From: Rickettsiella sp.
GTDB taxonomy: Bacteria > Pseudomonadota > Gammaproteobacteria > Diplorickettsiales > Diplorickettsiaceae
Length of the DNA: 24,000 bases
NCBI GenBank assembly: GCA_964417555.1
Contig: CAYQIM010000038.1
Coordinates: forward strand, 143,887-167,886
Reading direction: 5' to 3'
The translations under genes were made by a program, and so were the position numbers. The notes under the pieces were generated by a model, which worked only from the letters and a program-made list of their open reading frames with translations, had not been told where the DNA came from and searched no databases. Below are positions 1 through 21,576 of the stretch, in pieces (position 1 is the stretch's first letter; every line of letters begins with the position of its first letter).

Positions 1-1095
1 AATAGCGATGCAGCACTAATTCTTCATCTAAGTGAACGTAAGGTGTTGTTGTGCGGACATTGTTATGCCGGTGAAATTAAAAAAGCAATGTTTTCTGTTT
101 TGAATTATTTATTACCGGAACAAGATGTTTTGCCTATGCATTGTTCTGCGAATGTGGGTAAACAGGGCGATGTGGCCTTATTCTTCGGCTTATCAGGAAC
201 GGGTAAGACAACTTTATCGGCTGACCCCGAACGTTACTTGATTGGAGATGACGAGCATGGTTGGAGTGAGGACAGCGTCTTTAATTTTGAAGGCGGTTGT
301 TATGCTAAATGTATCGACTTATCGAAAGAACGTGAGCCAGTCATTTGGGATGCTATTCGCCATGGGGCGGTGATGGAAAATGTTGTATTAGATCCTAAAA
401 CTTTAGCGCCAAATTATAGTGATGCCAGTCTAACTCAAAATACACGGGTGGCTTATCCGTTAGAGTTTATCTCTCTGCGTGCACCAGAAAATCGTGTCGA
501 TCGTTTACCCAACGCGGTGATTTTTTTAACTTGCGACTTGTATGGGGTGTTACCACCCGTAGCGCGTTTGACCAATGAACAAGCCGCTTATTATTTTCTT
601 AGTGGATATACCGCCTTAGTAGGTAGTACCGAGGTGGGACAAAGCGAACCTATTAAAACAACGTTTAGTACCTGCTTTGGAGCGCCTTTTTTTCCACGTC
701 CTGCAAAAGTTTATGCTGAGTTACTTATTAAACGTTTAAAAAATAGTGACGCTAACGTTTATCTCGTTAATACGGGTTGGACCGGTGGGCCCTATGGGCA
801 GGGTCAACGCTTTCCTATTCCTGCAACGCGGGCAATCATTCATGCTATTTTAAATAATGGGATGAAATCAACGGAATATACGACCTTGCCAGGTTTTAAT
901 TTGGCTATTCCTAAACAGTTGCAAGGTATTGATGATCGCTTATTAAATCCAAAACAAACATGGGATGATCCCAATGAATATGATAAGCAAGCCAAGGAAT
1001 TAATGGGTAAGTTTATCGAGAATTTTAAGAAATTTGAAGTGAGTGAAGAAATCCGCAATGCAGGGCCTAAGAACGTGTTTTCAAATGCACGATGA
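1..1095 (+). CDS. pckA: Phosphoenolpyruvate carboxykinase (ATP), 5'-truncated by the window edge
   Basis: Frame 1 is open from base 1; the listed ORF 43..1095 only starts at an internal GTG. The translation has the ATP-PEPCK P-loop [11 protein letters not shown] plus IGDDEHGW and NTGWTGG segments. The last 8 codons and the TGA stop lie inside repeat copy 1. Confidence 0.95.
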
Positions 1096-1215
1096 CGGTC
1101 AAAAAACATTGTTTTTCTGTGTTTCGCTACTCACATACGTCATGTATGCTCCGTTGTTGCGATACTCGAAGAACAATGTTTTTTGTCTCGTCCTAGTACA
1201 TTTGAAAACACGTTC
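1071..1215 (+). repeat. MITE-like palindromic intergenic element, copy 1 (145 bp)
   Basis: The outer 17 nt GAACGTGTTTTCAAATG are the perfect reverse complement of the terminal CATTTGAAAACACGTTC. The inner block AAAAAACATTGTT pairs with AACAATGTTTTTT. It aligns along its full length with 14870-15011 and 18592-18732. Direct TAA lies on both flanks (1068-1070 and 1216-1218). Confidence 0.9.
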
Positions 1216-8843: not shown

Positions 8844-8857
8844 GAAGAGTATACTTA
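8844..8857 (+). repeat. 14-bp direct repeat GAAGAGTATACTTA, copy C
   Basis: It is identical to 8672-8685. Its last 3 nt are the stop codon (TTA on +) of the convergent 421-aa gene. It sits in the loop of a TGCAGCC/GGCTGCA inverted repeat (8823-8829 and 8858-8864). Confidence 0.85.
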
Positions 8858-10120
8858 GGCTGCAGGGGCTACCGAGTGAACATATCCCTCCAGTGTAATA
8901 ATTTTTTTGCCTTCTGGAGTGTGTTTGAAGAAAAAGTTGTTTTTATCTTCTTTCGAAGCGATAAAGTTTGGAATTATCTTCGCTATTTCATGCAATATTC
9001 TATATAAATAGGTAAGTTGTTCTAAATTAGGTTGGTTAGCTTCTTTGTAGTTTTTAATGATATCTTCACTTTCAATTTTAAATTTTTTGAAATCTTCTAA
9101 TAATTTTTCTCTATTGTCATTTACTGTAGCTAATTTTATCGTGAAATAATTATTTACTACCGTGTGCAATTTTTCTTTTACCGTTGGATCAAGGATGTTA
9201 TCAATTAATTGAAGTAATTTTAGATATTTCTCTTTTATTGGGCTCAGTTTTTTAGTTAGCTTTTTTGTCTCTTCGTATATAGACATTATTTGGTCTTCAA
9301 CAATAAAAAAACCTGGTTCTTTTCCTTGATAGCCCCAGTTAAAGGCTTTGAAAGCTTGTTTTTCATCCCGTTCGTTAATTTTTATACCAATGTAAGTATC
9401 TATCAAGTTATAAACATCTGATTCAGATTTTTCTGGAAAGTGCTTTTTAATGCTATGGACAACTCGTGCGTAAAATAGGCTTGCTTTTGAAATAGTTTCC
9501 GGATTAAAGTCATTTGTAATTAAAGGGATAATTGAACTTTTAATATTATCTAATTCAGAGCTAACAGAGCTAAGCTTTTGAGCCTCTAATATGACTGTTT
9601 CTGCGGAAAGAAAATTCGAGGCTTCGAAATTGCTAACTAAAATATTTTTTAAGATATAAAAAAAATTACTAATTTCAGGGCCTTTATTTTCATTGTTATC
9701 AAGGCGGTTAGTCTCATTTTGTAGCGATTCTATAACAGTATCAACTTGGCGCAATATAGTTTGTTTAATATTCTCTATTTTTTTTATTGCTGCTTTAACT
9801 GTTAAGCCCGCCTCTCCTTGTTGAAGCTCAGCAAATTTTACCGGAAGCCCCTTTATGGGGTCGGTGAGTGTTAAATTGAATTTGCTTAGTGTATCTTTTT
9901 TTGCAATAGCTTCTTTTTTAGACTTTGTCTTATCTGTATGTCTTACGATAAAATTACCAGATTGAAGCTCGAATTCAACTTCATTTAGGGAGGAATTTAG
10001 GACAGAGGAAGATGATCTGGCTTCCCAAAACGTATCTGAAGAAGGACAATCTCTAATGAATTTTATTAAACAGGCAATATTAAAAACGAGACTATCGGGC
10101 AAAGCCAAAGCATTTTTCAT
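8855..10120 (-). CDS. Hypothetical protein, 421 aa, no recognisable domain (helical, K/E/N-rich)
   Basis: A long uninterrupted ORF lies in very AT-rich DNA. I recognise no catalytic motif, signal peptide or TM segment. Confidence 0.6.
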   Translation of the reverse strand: MKNALALPDSLVFNIACLIKFIRDCPSSDTFWEARSSSSVLNSSLNEVEFELQSGNFIVRHTDKTKSKKEAIAKKDTLSKFNLTLTDPIKGLPVKFAELQQGEAGLTVKAAIKKIENIKQTILRQVDTVIESLQNETNRLDNNENKGPEISNFFYILKNILVSNFEASNFLSAETVILEAQKLSSVSSELDNIKSSIIPLITNDFNPETISKASLFYARVVHSIKKHFPEKSESDVYNLIDTYIGIKINERDEKQAFKAFNWGYQGKEPGFFIVEDQIMSIYEETKKLTKKLSPIKEKYLKLLQLIDNILDPTVKEKLHTVVNNYFTIKLATVNDNREKLLEDFKKFKIESEDIIKNYKEANQPNLEQLTYLYRILHEIAKIIPNFIASKEDKNNFFFKHTPEGKKIITLEGYVHSVAPAA

Positions 10121-13033: not shown

Positions 13034-14326
13034 ATGACTAACCCCCGTGCATTGGCAGCGCAAATAATTGCGCGGGTATTAACAGAAGGGATATCACTGA
13101 CAGAGGCTTTTGCGCAAGGTTTGATAAGGGTAAAAGATTCTCGAGATAGGGGTTTTATCCAAGAATTATGCTTTGGTGTAATACGCTGGTATGGTCCGCT
13201 GAGACAGATTTGTTCTTATTTATTAAAAAGGCCATTAAGTAATAATGACCAAGATATTTATGCATTATTGTTAATTGGGCTTTATCAATTTATTTATTTA
13301 AAGACAGCAGCTCATGCGGCGGTTCATGAAACAGTACAATCTGCAAAAGAACTTAAGAAAAATTGGGCTGTACCACTTATTAACGGCGTACTGCGCTCCT
13401 TTCAACGCCAACAAGCCGGATTATTAAAAAAATTGTCGCGGGAGGTACAGTATGCACATCCCGCTTGGTTCATAAAAAAATACAGCAAGCTTGGCCACAG
13501 GACTGGCAAGCTATTATTGAAGCTAACAACCAAGCACCACCCATGAGTTTGCGTGTTAATCAGTTAAAAGATTCGCGAGAGGGCTATTTACAAAAACTGC
13601 AAGAAAAAGCGATAGCGGCGCGATCTAGCGAGATTAGTGAGGTTGGAATTCTACTTAATGAAGCCTGTAATGTGTTTGGCTTACCAGGATTTTCAGAAGG
13701 AGAAGTCTCTGTACAAGATACTTCTAGCGGCTGTTTTATTGTTATTGCAGCCTAATCAATCTATATTAGATGCATGCGCTGCGCCAGGGGGTAAATTTGC
13801 CCATATATTAGAGAGGCAACCCGATTTAAAAGCCTGTGTAGCGGTTGACCAGGATGAGGATCGGTTAAGTAAAGTTGCTGAAAACCTTGCGCGTTTGAAA
13901 TTGATGAGTAATAAGGTGAAATTGATTTGTGCGAAAGCACAAACACTTAAAAGTTGGCAAGATGAATTATTTGATAGAATTTTATTAGATGCTCCTTGCT
14001 CTGGAAGCGGTATTATTCGTAGGCATCCCGATATCAAGCTATTACGTAGAGAAGAAGATATTTCTAAACTTGCAAAGCAGCAACTTGAACTTTTACTAGG
14101 ACTTTGGCCGCTACTTAAACCAAATGGTTTTTTACTCTATGCGACCTGTTCTGTTTTGCCTGAGGAAAACCAGCAGGTTATCCAGCGTTTTTTATCACAA
14201 CAGCCTGATGCCAAAGAAGATATTATCGATGCAGAATGGGGAGTGGCTTGTGAACGAGGGCGGCAAATTTTCCCACAGATTCGTGGTACAGATGGATTTT
14301 ATTATGCTAGATTGTTAAAAAAATAA
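13034..14326 (+). pseudogene. rsmB: 16S rRNA (cytosine967-C5)-methyltransferase RsmB/Sun, interrupted by two frameshifts
   Basis: Three ORF fragments (13034..13546, 13465..13755 and 13637..14326) lie in frames 2, 1 and 2. Together they give a collinear RsmB of about 431 codons: the NusB-like N-domain, AWPQDWQAIIEANNQ, LPGFSEGEVSVQD, the SAM motif DACAAPGGK, DAPCSGSG, and PEEN near ATCS. The first shift is at the A7 run 13474-13480 and the second near 13724-13733. Confidence 0.85.
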
Positions 14327-14869
14327 ATGAGTTATGTTATGAAAATAAAACTATCTTTTCTTAGTTGTTTGCTTTTAATAAGTCCTTTTTTGCTTTCTGC
14401 TTGTACAACATCTACGATGCAACAAAGCAATAATCTGCATGCTGTTAGCATTGAAAAAAGAAAAACAGTGGCTAAGAAAAATAAAGAATCGCCACCCCCA
14501 TTGATTCAAGTAATCCAAAGTCCTGACCGTCTACGAATTGTTCTTTATAGTGATGTTTGTTTTCAGGACAATAGCCGCTTAACTGCGGAATGTTCACAGC
14601 AACTTGCTACTACGATGAAGTTAATAAAGCATTATGGCGATAGTCTTATTCAAGTAGTGGGTTATACCGACGACATCTATGACCCGAAAATGGCAGCTGA
14701 AATTTCACAGCGACAAGCGGATACCGTGGTCGCTTTTTTATGGTCAAAAGGGATTGGCTCTCAGCGTTTACGTGCAGTAGGATTTGGTAATCATGATCCT
14801 ATTGCGAGTAATCAAAGTGTAAAGGCTAGTGCAGCTAATCGACGTGTGGAAATTATGCTAGTGAAATAA
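14327..14869 (+). CDS. OmpA-family (peptidoglycan-binding OmpA_C-like) lipoprotein
   Basis: It has a signal peptide with lipobox LSAC. The C-terminal OmpA-like domain reads VVGYTDD...RQADTVVAFL...GFGNHDPIASN...NRRVEI. An alternative start is the ATG at 14339 (MKIKL...). Confidence 0.8.
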   Translation: MSYVMKIKLSFLSCLLLISPFLLSACTTSTMQQSNNLHAVSIEKRKTVAKKNKESPPPLIQVIQSPDRLRIVLYSDVCFQDNSRLTAECSQQLATTMKLIKHYGDSLIQVVGYTDDIYDPKMAAEISQRQADTVVAFLWSKGIGSQRLRAVGFGNHDPIASNQSVKASAANRRVEIMLVK

Positions 14870-15011
14870 GAACGTGTCTTCAAATACACGATGACAGCCA
14901 AAAACATTATTTTTCTGTGTTTCGCTACTCACATACCTCATGTATGCTCCGTTGCGTTACTAGAAAAAACAATGTTTTTTGTCTCGTCCTAACACATTTG
15001 AAGCCACGTTC
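14870..15011 (+). repeat. MITE-like palindromic intergenic element, copy 2 (142 bp)
   Basis: It aligns along its full length with copies 1 and 3. It is flanked by TAA at 14867-14869 (the OmpA-like stop codon) and TAA at 15012-14. Confidence 0.9.
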
Positions 15012-15014
15012 TAA

Positions 15015-15914
15015 TTATCCCGTATTAGCAAGTACCAAGCCGCTAGTTTCTGTGTAGGTATTTAAGAAATTCACAGGAGTGGAGTAATAAATAATACTAG
15101 CATCCTTAGCTAAAGCGCTTAGTTTGTTTTTAATAGTGACTTCAGCATAGGCTTGGTTTTTTGTTTTGATAAAGCCATTATCCGATCGTAGTTGTTTGGC
15201 AAATAGATGTGTTTTTTTTGAAAGATTAACGTCTAAGTTTTTGGTAATACCAGCTAAAAAAATTCTTCCATTACCACTGCCATTTATTTGTAAATAAGGG
15301 CTGTCTAGCCAGTAAATGTTGAGATCGCCGTTACCAGTAACATTGAGCTTATGTAAGGCAATATCTCCTCCTAGCCTAATTTTTCCTGCACTTTCGTTTT
15401 GAATGGTTAGATTAGAGCTAACAATATTATGAAGCGTAATATTGACTTTGTTGCCGGCATAAAGCGATTTTAAATCGAGTTTCTTTGTACAAAGTTTAAT
15501 GCAACCTTCTCCTGTTGCGGTGAGAGACAATGTTCCTGTTAAACCTTTGCCAAATAAGCTGCCATTGCTATTAAAATTGATTTGGTTTAGTTGCGAGGGT
15601 GTAATATTTAACCTGATACTTAAACGATCTCCTTTACGTGGCCAATAAGTCCATTTTGTTCCAAGATAGAGTATATGATTTTTTATTTTCCAATTTACTG
15701 CAGCAACGGTTTTTGGGTCGCCAAAGACTTGTAAGGAAGGTGTTGAAGGCTTTATTTGGGTCTGAGTATCGATGATGACATTGACCGGACCTTGAATAAC
15801 TAATCCAGAAAAAAATGGAGTAGATACATTTTTGACGACTAAGGGAGGGGGAGCTGCAATTACAGGGGTAGAGAAAAAGAAGCAGATGGCAAATAGGCAG
15901 GCCAATGGTTTCAT
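15015..15914 (-). CDS. Secreted DUF2807 / GIN-domain-like beta-helical protein
   Basis: The 299-aa ORF has a signal peptide (MKPLACLFAICFFFSTPVIA). It has repetitive G-x-G strand-turn segments (TGNGDLNIY, GSGNGRIFL) and a terminal SIIYYSTP-type motif reminiscent of DUF2807. The family assignment is from memory. Confidence 0.6.
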   Translation of the reverse strand: MKPLACLFAICFFFSTPVIAAPPPLVVKNVSTPFFSGLVIQGPVNVIIDTQTQIKPSTPSLQVFGDPKTVAAVNWKIKNHILYLGTKWTYWPRKGDRLSIRLNITPSQLNQINFNSNGSLFGKGLTGTLSLTATGEGCIKLCTKKLDLKSLYAGNKVNITLHNIVSSNLTIQNESAGKIRLGGDIALHKLNVTGNGDLNIYWLDSPYLQINGSGNGRIFLAGITKNLDVNLSKKTHLFAKQLRSDNGFIKTKNQAYAEVTIKNKLSALAKDASIIYYSTPVNFLNTYTETSGLVLANTG

Positions 15915-16115
15915 AAGTTTATCTCTTTCTTATTATTTTTTTAAGGATAATACCTTTTTTGTACAAATTTTACTATAGAAGGAAAAGCTATATTCTGTGT
16001 ACTAATTCACAAGCCACTCGTCAATTTTCCACTGAAGCTGCTCTCATTGCTATATTTTTCCTTAAGCTTATTAGGTTATAATCCCAAACTTACTGCGCCT
16101 ATCGATTGAGCATTT

Positions 16116-17876: not shown

Positions 17877-18556
17877 TGGCTAAAGATTATGCGAAATATC
17901 AGACTTATCAAAGATCACGCTCTTCTCGTGGACGTCTTTGGTTAATATTAGGGTTAGCATTCGTCTTACTTCTTTTAGGGTTGTTTTTCTTAAAAAATCA
18001 TCATAAACAGGGAATTGCGCAGCAAACTGCAGATAAATTAACGAAAAAAAAATTAGGAGCGCCAGCACCTAAACCACCAGAACCAAAATTTGATTTTTAT
18101 AATATTTTGCCGCAAGATAATCTAACTTTAGCCTCTCAAGCCACGGATGATGTTGCGCTTTCTTCGATGGATCCATCAATAACGGCTATTACAAATAAAA
18201 CGGATCCTGACCCTTCTCATTTTAAAAAAACATTAGATAACTTGCTGGATACAACACCAGAACAGCTTGCAATTGCAGAGGCTAAAAAGCAATTGGACCA
18301 GGAAATGAGCCAGTTAAACAATAATGCCTACCTCCTTGTATTAGGAAATTTTCAAGACTCAGCTCAAGCGGAGCAATATCAAGCGCAGGCACTTCTAAAA
18401 GGATTTCCGGTACAGAGCAAGGTGAATAGGGTAAATGGAGGCATAACTTACCAACTTTTTATGGGACCTTATACCAATCTGGCAGCCGCTTCCCAGGTGC
18501 AGAAACGGTTAAATACCGCTGGAATGCAGGTGGCTTTATTGAAATTAAATTTATAG
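17876..18556 (+). CDS. SPOR-domain bitopic membrane protein, FtsN-like
   Basis: Its ATG overlaps the argS stop (TAATG). It has a basic N-terminus, one TM segment (LWLILGLAFVLLLLGLFFL), a low-complexity linker and a C-terminal SPOR-like domain (YLLVLGNFQDSAQAEQ...YQLFMGPY). Its position directly upstream of hslVU matches ftsN-hslVU synteny in E. coli. Confidence 0.7.
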   Translation: MAKDYAKYQTYQRSRSSRGRLWLILGLAFVLLLLGLFFLKNHHKQGIAQQTADKLTKKKLGAPAPKPPEPKFDFYNILPQDNLTLASQATDDVALSSMDPSITAITNKTDPDPSHFKKTLDNLLDTTPEQLAIAEAKKQLDQEMSQLNNNAYLLVLGNFQDSAQAEQYQAQALLKGFPVQSKVNRVNGGITYQLFMGPYTNLAAASQVQKRLNTAGMQVALLKLNL

Positions 18557-18587: not shown

Positions 18588-18591
18588 ATAA

Positions 18592-18732
18592 GGACGTGCC
18601 ACCAAATTCACGATGACGGCCAAGAAACGTTGTTTTCCATGTTTCGTTACCCACATATTTCGTGTGTGATCTGTTACGTTACTCGAAAAATAACGTTTTT
18701 TGTCCTGTCCTGACGCATTTGAAGGCACGTTC
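18592..18732 (+). repeat. MITE-like palindromic intergenic element, copy 3 (141 bp, most diverged)
   Basis: It aligns along its full length with copies 1 and 2. TAA lies at 18589-18591 on the left and AAA on the right. It sits between the sigma32-like promoter and the hslV start. Confidence 0.85.
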
Positions 18733-18769
18733 AAAGCGTTTGAATTTCTACAAAATAAAAGGGTAAGCC

Positions 18770-19324
18770 GTGGCTTTACATGGTACAACAATATTATTGG
18801 TTCGAAGAGACAATAAAGTCGTTATAGGTGGAGATGGGCAAGTCACCTTAGGAAACGCGATTGTATTAAAGGGTAATGCGCGTAAAGTTCGGAAACTATA
18901 TAACGAGCAGGTATTAGTTGGGTTTGCGGGAGCGACTGCAGATGCGTTTACCTTGCTTGATTTATTTGAGGGAAAATTGCAAAAACATCAAGGAAATTTA
19001 TTACGTGCTGCGCTTGAATTGGCTAAAGATTGGCGTACGGACCGTATCTTACGCCGTTTAGAAGCGATGTTAGCGGTTGCTGATAAAGATAAATCGTTAG
19101 TATTAAGTGGTAATGGAGATGTTATTGAACCTGAGCATGATCTTATTGCTATTGGTTCTGGTGGAGCCTACGCTCAATCAGCAGCGTTGGCTTTATTGCA
19201 AAATACAAAATTAGGGGCGCGTAGTATTGTTGAAAAAAGTTTAAGTATTGCTGCTGATATTTGTGTTTTCACTAATCATCAACGTACGCTTGAAGAAATT
19301 GATTCCAATGTCACTAAAAAATAA
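18770..19324 (+). CDS. hslV: ATP-dependent protease subunit HslV
   Basis: The 184-aa ORF has a GTG start, then MALHG followed by TTILLVRR. The catalytic Thr follows a short pro-peptide. It has GDGQVTLG and [12 protein letters not shown] blocks, and an AAGGG Shine-Dalgarno upstream. Confidence 0.95.
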
Positions 19325-21197: not shown

Positions 21198-21576
21198 TGG
21201 GGTGTCTCTTTGCAGGAAGGAAGGCAGAAACATATACTTTATGACTGTCATTCTGCTAAATGACGCATATCTAGCTAGCCAATATTTCTTCTCATGATTA
21301 CTCTGCGCAACAGTATAACGGTTCTTCCTACCAATTCTTAAGGTAAATTTTTTATATCTATTATTCAACGAAAATGAGAACTTATATGTAATAATAGTTT
21401 ATATGTTAATATGCTCTGAAACGAATTATAAAAAAATTAATTTGAGTCGGCCATCTTACGAAAACTTTTGATTCTTGCAAATTTGAGAGTTGTAATAAAA
21501 AATATTTTTGGCAATTTTTTGCAAATAAATCCCAAAATCCGGAATGTCGCTCGCCCGAATTTTTAATATCTAGAGT

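Follow-up and report, generated by a model that had tools for sequence, protein, structure and literature searches.

A hairpin-forming element that has recently moved in Rickettsiella, duplicates T(N)A targets near gene ends and is probably a non-autonomous MITE

Does a repeat that folds into a long hairpin at the ends of bacterial genes represent a transposable element, a structured RNA or DNA site, or a mobile sequence with an added role? This question is raised by a 24,000-nt stretch of Rickettsiella sp. DNA (the window; contig CAYQIM010000038.1, positions 143,887 to 167,886), in which the original prediction had noticed three copies of a ~142-bp palindromic sequence and had proposed a non-autonomous transposable element. 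By comparing the window with related loci (L0xx) and proteins (P0xxx), we find that the element is mobile and has recently moved in the Rickettsiella/Aquirickettsiella-like lineage of the window. We put a probability of roughly 0.8 on its being, as we infer, a non-autonomous MITE (a miniature transposable element with inverted repeats) mobilised in trans by a DDE transposase whose gene lies at another place in the genome. Further copies, empty sites, retained pairing and the lack of a match to a catalogued family, all reported below, came out in favour of the proposed non-autonomous element. The window has the GC content (34-41%) of an AT-rich gammaproteobacterium, and the best named matches of its PckA and HslV are from Rickettsiella metagenome-assembled genomes (MAGs) and endosymbionts.

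The three copies lie where they had been predicted, all on the + strand, at 1071-1215 (copy 1, 145 bp), 14870-15011 (copy 2, 142 bp) and 18592-18732 (copy 3, 141 bp), and all three belong to what is called subfamily A below. An nhmmer profile built from all family members recovered them with E-values of 1e-39, 5e-36 and 8e-34, respectively, and found no further full copy in the window. Copy 3 is the most diverged of the three, with 75-78% identity to copies 1 and 2. Each copy folds as a single long hairpin (-63.8, -44.4 and -50.1 kcal/mol for copies 1, 2 and 3, with z-scores of -10.9, -7.4 and -5.9), and none of 200 dinucleotide shuffles gave as good a fold. Copy 1, which is supported by nhmmer, by its fold and by an exact empty site in L009, has the ends GAACGTG...CACGTTC, the boxes CACGATGAC and GTCCTAG, and a core that reads TTTCGCTACTCACATAC...GTATGCTCCGTT. 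Its outer 17 nt pair perfectly and an inner A-rich run pairs with a T-rich run, as had been claimed for the hairpin architecture. The individual arm substitutions that had been listed are also present. Copy 1 has T:A both at arm position 8 (alignment columns 8:143), where copy 3 has C:G, and at arm position 9 (columns 9:142), where copies 2 and 3 have C:G; further inside, it has CATTG/CAATG where copy 3 has CGTTG/TAACG.

The evidence for mobility comes from relatives in which these sites are unoccupied. At the copy 1 site, L009 reads gcagggccTAAttttgtggag, which is exactly the window minus copy 1 and minus one TAA. In the window, the pckA open reading frame (ORF) runs into copy 1, so that its 3' end is derived from the element (1071-1095, + strand), encoding the tail (K)NVFSNAR followed by the TGA stop codon of the ORF (1093-1095) in place of an ancestral NFVE... 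tail. Removal in silico of copy 1 and one TAA yields a PckA that ends AGPNFVEEMS*, and the closest homologue (P0001, 93% identical, from L009) ends AGPNFVE*, while the deposited PckA annotation of the source genome (P0242) ends in the element-derived KNVFSNAR. In the window, the insertion of copy 1 has replaced the last residues of PckA.

The copy 3 site is likewise empty in L012, L013, L046 and L047, relatives with 97-98% HslV identity, and reads ccaccattaaTAAgttttgaattc in L012 and L013; empty sites therefore exist, and the exact one for copy 1 keeps a single TAA. The element is also missing at the copy 2 site in L011 and L045, and no other relative examined has it there, although none of them offered a base-exact empty site since the intergenic spacer in L011 and L045 is too different. 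The polymorphism is reciprocal, in that L045 and L046 (among relatives with 98% HslV identity) carry insertions at sites that are unoccupied in the window. In L045 this is a full C-type copy that lies between argS and the DUF2807 gene and has TA on both sides. In L046 and L047, the closest relative, a 78-bp deletion derivative of the element flanked by TGA/TGA occupies the 3' end of the SPOR-domain gene, where the window has a single, unoccupied TGA (18540-18542). Since none of copies 1-3 is present in the closest relatives, which have extra copies of their own, insertion and loss are recent and ongoing in the lineage. The surviving insertions are located at gene ends or within a few codons of them, and some of them give the adjacent protein a new C-terminal tail. 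As a separate observation, the window position that matches the TA[C-type element]TA of L045 reads TATA (15974-15977), which is either the ancestral sequence or an excision footprint in which the two copies of the duplication were left behind.

Further copies are numerous. In total, we count at least 38 copies in at least 10 assemblies, at least 35 of them additional to those of the window and at non-orthologous sites. A pattern scan for subfamily A across one genome per species (the GTDB set) found five copies in the MAG JAZKJD01, together with three matches in other genomes that are attributable to chance, and profile searches of the flanks of the MAG hits and of the relatives' loci added more copies, partial and decayed ones included, bringing the MAG to at least seven in total. 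In metagenomes, a first pattern of CACGATGAC...TTNCGNTANNCACATA gave no match, and a core-only pattern located in the left half of the core gave 23 loci, of which 21 were genuine and carried 22 copies. The GC content of all host contigs is 32-42%. The two lineages checked by protein are Rickettsiella/Aquirickettsiella-like; one host of subfamily B was placed by its NadE among Aquirickettsiella/Rickettsiella endosymbionts.

All copies share one anatomy, that of a single long imperfect palindrome with terminal inverted repeats (TIRs), a pair of short conserved boxes (CACGATGA, partnered by CATCCTAGC / CGTCCTAG), inner arms that vary yet remain complementary, and a core of ~55 nt that hardly changes. 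On the basis of their outer arms we defined four subfamilies: A (GAAMGTGTCTTCAAATG; the window and the MAG), B (GGGTGTGTTGACAATTG; the MAG and metagenome contigs), C (GGATGTGTCGTCATTTGG; metagenome contigs and close relatives) and D (GAGGGTGTCTCCAATTG; metagenome contigs). The four arms align without gaps and have in common G1, GTGT at 5-8, CA at 12-13 and TG at 16-17. The TIRs are thus homologous across the four subfamilies, at 17-18 bp with the pattern G-R-R-N-G-T-G-T...C-A-W-T-G. The window also contains a stretch on the - strand (21199-21271) in which TA adjoins GATATGCGTCATTTAGCAGAATGACAGTCATAAA...GAGACACCCC; it is a weak match to the nhmmer profile (E = 0.063) in which ~30 of 38 bases fit the C-type 5' arm by eye, and we tentatively regard it as probably a decayed and internally deleted fourth copy, of this different subfamily.

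The sequences that flank these copies define the target. In the window, copy 1 lies between TAA at 1068-1070, within the pckA coding sequence (cc-TAA-tt, out of frame), and TAA at 1216-1218. The left TAA of copy 2 (14867-14869) doubles as the stop codon of an OmpA-family gene (14327-14869) and its right TAA (15012-15014) adjoins TTA (15015-15017), where the convergent DUF2807 gene of the - strand has its stop codon. Copy 3 has TAA on its left (18589-18591) and AAA on its right (18733-18735), a decayed copy of the TAA duplication. Across subfamilies A and D, both 3-bp flanks are identical in 9 of 11 copies (TAA in six, TTA in two and TCA in one) and agree at 2 of 3 positions in the remaining two; the 78-bp derivative in L046, with TGA/TGA, is a twelfth case of the A/D type. 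Since the middle base changes together on both sides, these flanks represent a duplication and not an extension of the inverted repeat. Of the B and C copies with intact ends, nearly all are flanked by TA/TA and the next bases outward are mismatched. Here L042-L044 (L042 being the Rickettsiella endosymbiont of Rhagonycha lignosa) have the empty site cacgaTA(a)(a/g)ctcgagg where L037 and L040 read cacgaTA[element]TAagctcgagg, which confirms that subfamily B duplicates 2 bp (TA). Filled and empty sites have thus been compared for TAA (copy 1 and L009), TGA (L046 and the window) and TA (L037 and L040 versus L042-L044), and the element inserts at T(N)A, with a 3-bp TNA duplication in A and D. The 3-bp target-site duplication of the original prediction is therefore real, but it is not specific to TAA, since TCA, TTA and TGA are also used and the sister subfamilies B and C have TA.

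In the mechanism that we propose, a DDE transposase would act in trans on the ends of the element at T(N)A targets. The combination of a T(N)A target with a switch between 2 and 3 bp in sister subfamilies is best fitted by an enzyme of the IS5/PIF-Harbinger type, and the transposase is possibly of this type, judging from the target duplication. Searches of the window and of ~400 kb of related loci yielded no parent element, and we therefore offer the family of the transposase as a hypothesis. The TA flanks of B and C, with the 2-bp duplication confirmed for B, could instead point to a transposase of the IS630/Tc1-mariner type. TA is the hallmark target of these elements, and mobilisation of this type applies to Stowaway-like MITEs, to RUP and perhaps to Correia elements. 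However, strict TA duplication was found for B and C only and not at every copy; the ends of A and D are homologous to those of B and C at the same register and yet are flanked by TNA (TAA, TTA, TCA or TGA), for which, with its variable middle base, a strict TA duplication cannot account. Furthermore, a switch between 2 and 3 bp is documented among the relatives of Harbinger, a group akin to the IS5 family of bacteria whose members make 0-, 2- (TA) or 3-bp duplications (PMC12730594). We therefore consider an IS630/Tc1-mariner-type enzyme unlikely, though it deserves to be kept in mind.

A different kind of enzyme could be suspected from the hairpin itself. The stems vary but keep pairing and the boxes in the internal loops are conserved, which resembles structure-specific recognition, as would be the case if the hairpin were moved as single-stranded DNA by an HUH/Y1 enzyme of the IS200/IS605-derived or REP/RAYT (repetitive extragenic palindrome/REP-associated tyrosine transposase) kind. 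Transposition by HUH/Y1 enzymes is not known to make target-site duplications, whereas those found here are genuine and have empty sites. Elements of the IS200/IS605 type show an orientation bias with respect to the replication strand, and the copies showed none when GC skew was used as a proxy for the direction of replication (14 versus 9). Furthermore, the element is one 142-bp palindrome and not two subterminal hairpins, and no conserved tetranucleotide target beyond T(N)A was seen. We consider this explanation very improbable.

Returning to a MITE moved in trans by a DDE transposase, the simplest view of its internal organisation is that the conserved boxes and the core would be cis-acting sequences needed by the master copies for transposition, and the complementarity of the arms would be maintained either by a single protein that reads both ends or by self-homogenisation of the palindrome. 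That they do stay complementary was found in an alignment of 27 full copies with 38 hairpin pairs. In this alignment 95.3% of the hairpin cells are paired, compared with 86.4 +/- 0.6% after shuffling (a value that 0 of 500 shuffles reached), and the covariation score is 0.256 as opposed to 0.119 in the shuffled alignments and at most 0.066 when the partners were slid by 1-3 columns. The number of pairs with changes on both sides (13 of 38) is not above that in the shuffles (11.0, with 58 of 500 shuffles doing as well), since there are few subfamily-level events and these have been inherited by many copies. The matched arm substitutions that had been taken to argue for selection on the hairpin, or conversion toward it, are thus borne out as complementarity in excess of shuffled and slid controls, but by themselves they are no proof of selection on an RNA hairpin. 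Such changes would be expected alike from one protein reading both ends, from self-conversion of the palindrome and from a requirement for pairing, and do not discriminate between them.

Several observations weigh against the proposal of a MITE mobilised in trans. The autonomous partner was not found. Transposases are absent from the window, as had been stated in the original prediction; when its 20 largest ORFs were compared with Pfam, 19 belonged to housekeeping-type families and one (8855-10120) had no match. In the ~400 kb of related loci there was neither an orphan TIR (with up to 3 mismatches) nor an inverted-repeat pair the size of an insertion sequence; the sole match in the search for inverted-repeat pairs 500-3500 bp apart consisted of two copies of an unrelated ~124-bp repeat, described below, which flank part of a membrane-protein gene in L031. 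The copy counts cover the window, the relatives' loci, the MAG and metagenome contigs. Conservation runs opposite to what would naively be expected of a MITE, since the TIRs and arms vary (44-83% identity) while the core is 92-100% identical. Lastly, an orthologous copy in L037 and L040, which are two species, is identical at 140 of 142 positions (98.6%).

The last two points require further comment. Between the subfamily consensuses, 7-8 of 8 positions are identical in the CACGATGA box, 9-10 of 11 in its partner CATCCTAGC and 22-24 of 24 in the right half of the core, compared with 55-83% in the outer arms and 44-79% in the inner arms. Conservation of the left half of the core is partly due to ascertainment, because that half contained the metagenome search pattern; the right half and both boxes were outside it. 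With regard to the L037/L040 copy, identity between these loci is 82-89% at third codon positions in lptF, lptG and nadE and 80-98% in other spacers, one other intergenic spacer being just as conserved (65/66). The near-identity of the copy hints at a constraint beyond selfish mobility, or at conversion between copies. In L024 (1694-1772) there is also a mini-version of ~80 bp with B-type ends from which the conserved core has been deleted; if core-less copies of this kind still move, the core is dispensable for transposition.

These features raise the alternative that the element is of mobile origin and that its hairpin also serves as a structured RNA or as a DNA site for a host protein. As an RNA, in the transcripts that contain it, it could be a stabiliser in the 3' untranslated region, a processing site for RNase III/E, a terminator or a small-RNA precursor, and selection on such a role would explain the invariant core, the boxes in internal loops and the compensated stems. 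Consistent with this, the invariant boxes and core are set in stems that covary, and the L037/L040 copy is more conserved than the synonymous positions of the flanking genes, although the other spacer that is just as conserved detracts from this point, and the double-change pairs that do not exceed those of the shuffles detract from the former. Of the copies that lie between co-directional genes, where the direction of transcription is unambiguous, 13 have the antisense and 3 the sense orientation (two-sided binomial ~0.02), and the sole wobble pairs that are fixed in whole subfamilies are G:U on the + strand. However, these two signals, both of which are weak, contradict each other, because on the strand that is usually transcribed (the minus-sense strand) the fixed wobble pairs become A:C mismatches; overall, wobble and A:C occur at 15 versus 16 positions, which gives no signal for an RNA strand. 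Copies are also found between convergent genes (4) and in divergent promoter regions (3), and copy 3 and the relics are in visible decay.

Searches for a matching RNA or site were also negative. At the gathering threshold, Rfam identified only a tRNA in the window; in a permissive scan of copy 1, the best family was a microRNA hairpin with 23.7 bits against a threshold of 89, and copy 1 has no promoter or terminator consensus. The consensus for integration host factor (IHF), WATCAANNNNTTR, is present in 1 of the 27 copies only. The case for an added function is thus weak and in part contradicts itself, so that an RNA or host function is possible, and the alternative as a whole is in our judgement unlikely without being negligible. 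Less likely again is a stronger version, in which the core and boxes would constitute a functional module of folded single-stranded RNA or DNA, acting either as a structure-dependent transposition substrate, which would be of a kind not described for elements that duplicate T(N)A, or as a mobile regulatory RNA that the host would maintain by purifying selection after its insertion, to which the 98.6% identical orthologous copy and the 13:3 orientation bias would point.

A coding function was considered separately. Copy 1 and most B and D copies are open for 33-34 codons from an ATG in the CACGATGA box to a TAG in the CCTAG box, with similar predicted peptides of ~33 residues (MT.KK.CFS.FRYSHT.CMLRYDT...SS*). 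Frame analysis led us to reject this small protein, to which we assign practically no chance, since the core is read in frame 0, 1 or 2 depending on the subfamily and even between copies of one genome, premature stops occur in several copies (after 18 codons in copy 3) and the TAG is absent from C-type copies.

How, then, does the element compare with known families? Prokaryotic MITEs are defined as elements of ~50-800 bp without coding capacity (PMC11602168). The copies in the window are 141-145 bp, there is no conserved reading frame, the TIRs, at 17-18 bp, exceed the minimum of 10-15 bp, the target-site duplications of 2 or 3 bp revealed by filled and empty sites are within the range of 2-10 bp, and the copies are dispersed and differ in presence and absence. 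The element works like the Correia, ERIC (enterobacterial repetitive intergenic consensus) and Coxiella QMITE families, as a hairpin-forming MITE at gene ends, and is a member of none of them. With Correia elements (CREE/NEMIS) of Neisseria it shares a non-coding length of ~100-155 bp, TIRs, a hairpin formed by the whole element, many copies at gene ends, subtypes based on the ends, a TA duplication (as in B and C) and an autonomous partner that has not been identified; this description of Correia elements follows in part a review of MITEs (PMC10969869) and is otherwise general background. It differs from them in host clade, in its lack of the IHF consensus and in the TNA duplication of A and D, and similarity at the sequence level was not observed, the Neisseria TIRs not having been compared directly.

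ERIC elements, also termed intergenic repeat units (IRU), are ~127 bp in length and often lie in transcribed intergenic regions of enterobacteria. They resemble the element in being imperfect palindromes of similar size that are mostly intergenic and more conserved than would be expected of junk, and differ in their enterobacterial hosts; a blastn search of 5,426 complete E. coli genomes (20,395 records), which are carriers of ERIC, gave no match to the element. QMITE1 and QMITE2 belong to Coxiella burnetii, whose family, the Coxiellaceae, is taken to be the same bacterial family, and are MITEs with very stable hairpins. They extend a few bases into the 3' ends of ORFs and give rise to small RNAs (PMC5896051). 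As published, QMITE1 is 300-400 bp long with direct repeats of 2-3 nt, and QMITE2 is 150-190 bp long with variable direct repeats of 7-11 nt and an internal GTAG REP that is the target of IS1111 (PMC5896051). On these descriptions, the sequences themselves not having been compared, the element is set apart from QMITE1, with which its duplication length is compatible, by being less than half the size, and from QMITE2 by its length of ~142 bp, its 2-3-bp T(N)A duplication and its lack of a GTAG REP. The subfamily-A pattern, which is narrow, had no match in the Coxiella genomes of the GTDB set.

The Tourist-like MITEs and the PIF-Harbinger/IS5 group share with the element a T-N-A or TA duplication and short TIRs that start with G; an IS5-family parent with these ends was not found, so that the kinship is drawn from the duplication only. 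Rickettsia palindromic elements (RPEs) typically lie in frame within genes, without clear target duplications, and can alter protein ends. Like them, the element is a short palindromic repeat of obligate intracellular bacteria that alters the ends of proteins, but it inserts at the extreme 3' end of a gene and brings its own stop codon. Plasmid, phage and viral-contig collections contained nothing similar, and the literature searched contained no paper linking Rickettsiella with MITEs. With Rfam and the E. coli genomes included, there was thus no match to a catalogued family, and the family is apparently undescribed so far.

The same bacterial group contains a second, unrelated repeat family of ~124 bp (TATACTCTTCGCACTTG...CAATTGCTGCGAGTA), found in L031 (5110-5233 and 6536-6660), L014 (4978-5101), L021 (4351-4476), L042 (15847-15968), L040 (2012-2131) and L028 (621-734). 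In L014 and L021 it is nested within a C-type copy of the main element. The L040 repeat lies inside an ORF for acyl-CoA dehydrogenase that has 787 aa as opposed to 745-750 aa in relatives, and looks like an in-frame insertion of the kind known from Rickettsia palindromic elements. A different element of ~100 bp with 11-bp inverted ends (GTCATTGCGAG...CTCGCAATGAC) is present in the pckA-proC spacer of L009 (3027-3126), with no second copy in the related loci examined.

As had been noted at the outset, all three copies in the window sit at gene ends. Copy 1 has pckA (+) on its left and proC (-) on its right, copy 2 lies between the OmpA-family gene (+) and the DUF2807 gene (-), and copy 3 between the SPOR-domain gene (+) and hslV (+). 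The HslV ORF (18770-19324) has an apparent GTG start and an N-terminal extension of five residues (MALHG) ahead of the catalytic Thr-Thr, which is the same in relatives and which we would liken to that of Bacillus CodW. Upstream of the OmpA-family gene, rsmB (13034-14326) is made up of three overlapping ORFs, the middle one in another frame and the first frame with in-frame stops, where the relative L011 has a single gene of 435 aa; this represents either a pseudogene or two sequencing frameshifts. The ORFs for cydA, cydB and rsmI were identified solely through their orthologues in L010 and L012. The 421-aa ORF without a Pfam match (8855-10120, - strand) is syntenic with an unannotated ORF of similar size in L010 (19331-20704), and tblastn detected no similarity between the two.

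The genomes of Rickettsiella have been described as having a "paucity of mobile genetic elements" (PMC6016236), and only a single mobile element was detected in a comparative screen published recently (bioRxiv 10.1101/2024.12.03.626579). Our findings show that an active class of mobile DNA escapes screens centred on transposases in these symbionts and pathogens of arthropods. It reaches a density of three copies in a 24-kb window and has been active so recently that relatives with 98% HslV identity differ in the copies that they have or lack. Its insertions rewrite the C-termini of proteins, namely PckA in the window and the SPOR-domain protein in the closest relative, and also occur between convergent or co-transcribed genes. 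The element is usable as a marker for strain typing, and it gives rise to annotation artefacts, of which the element-derived tail of PckA in the deposited genome is an example. The pairing of an invariant core with covarying arms is unusual and keeps a structure-dependent function open at low probability. Furthermore, the sister TNA and TA subfamilies represent a natural test of how the length of the target duplication changes within one transposon lineage.

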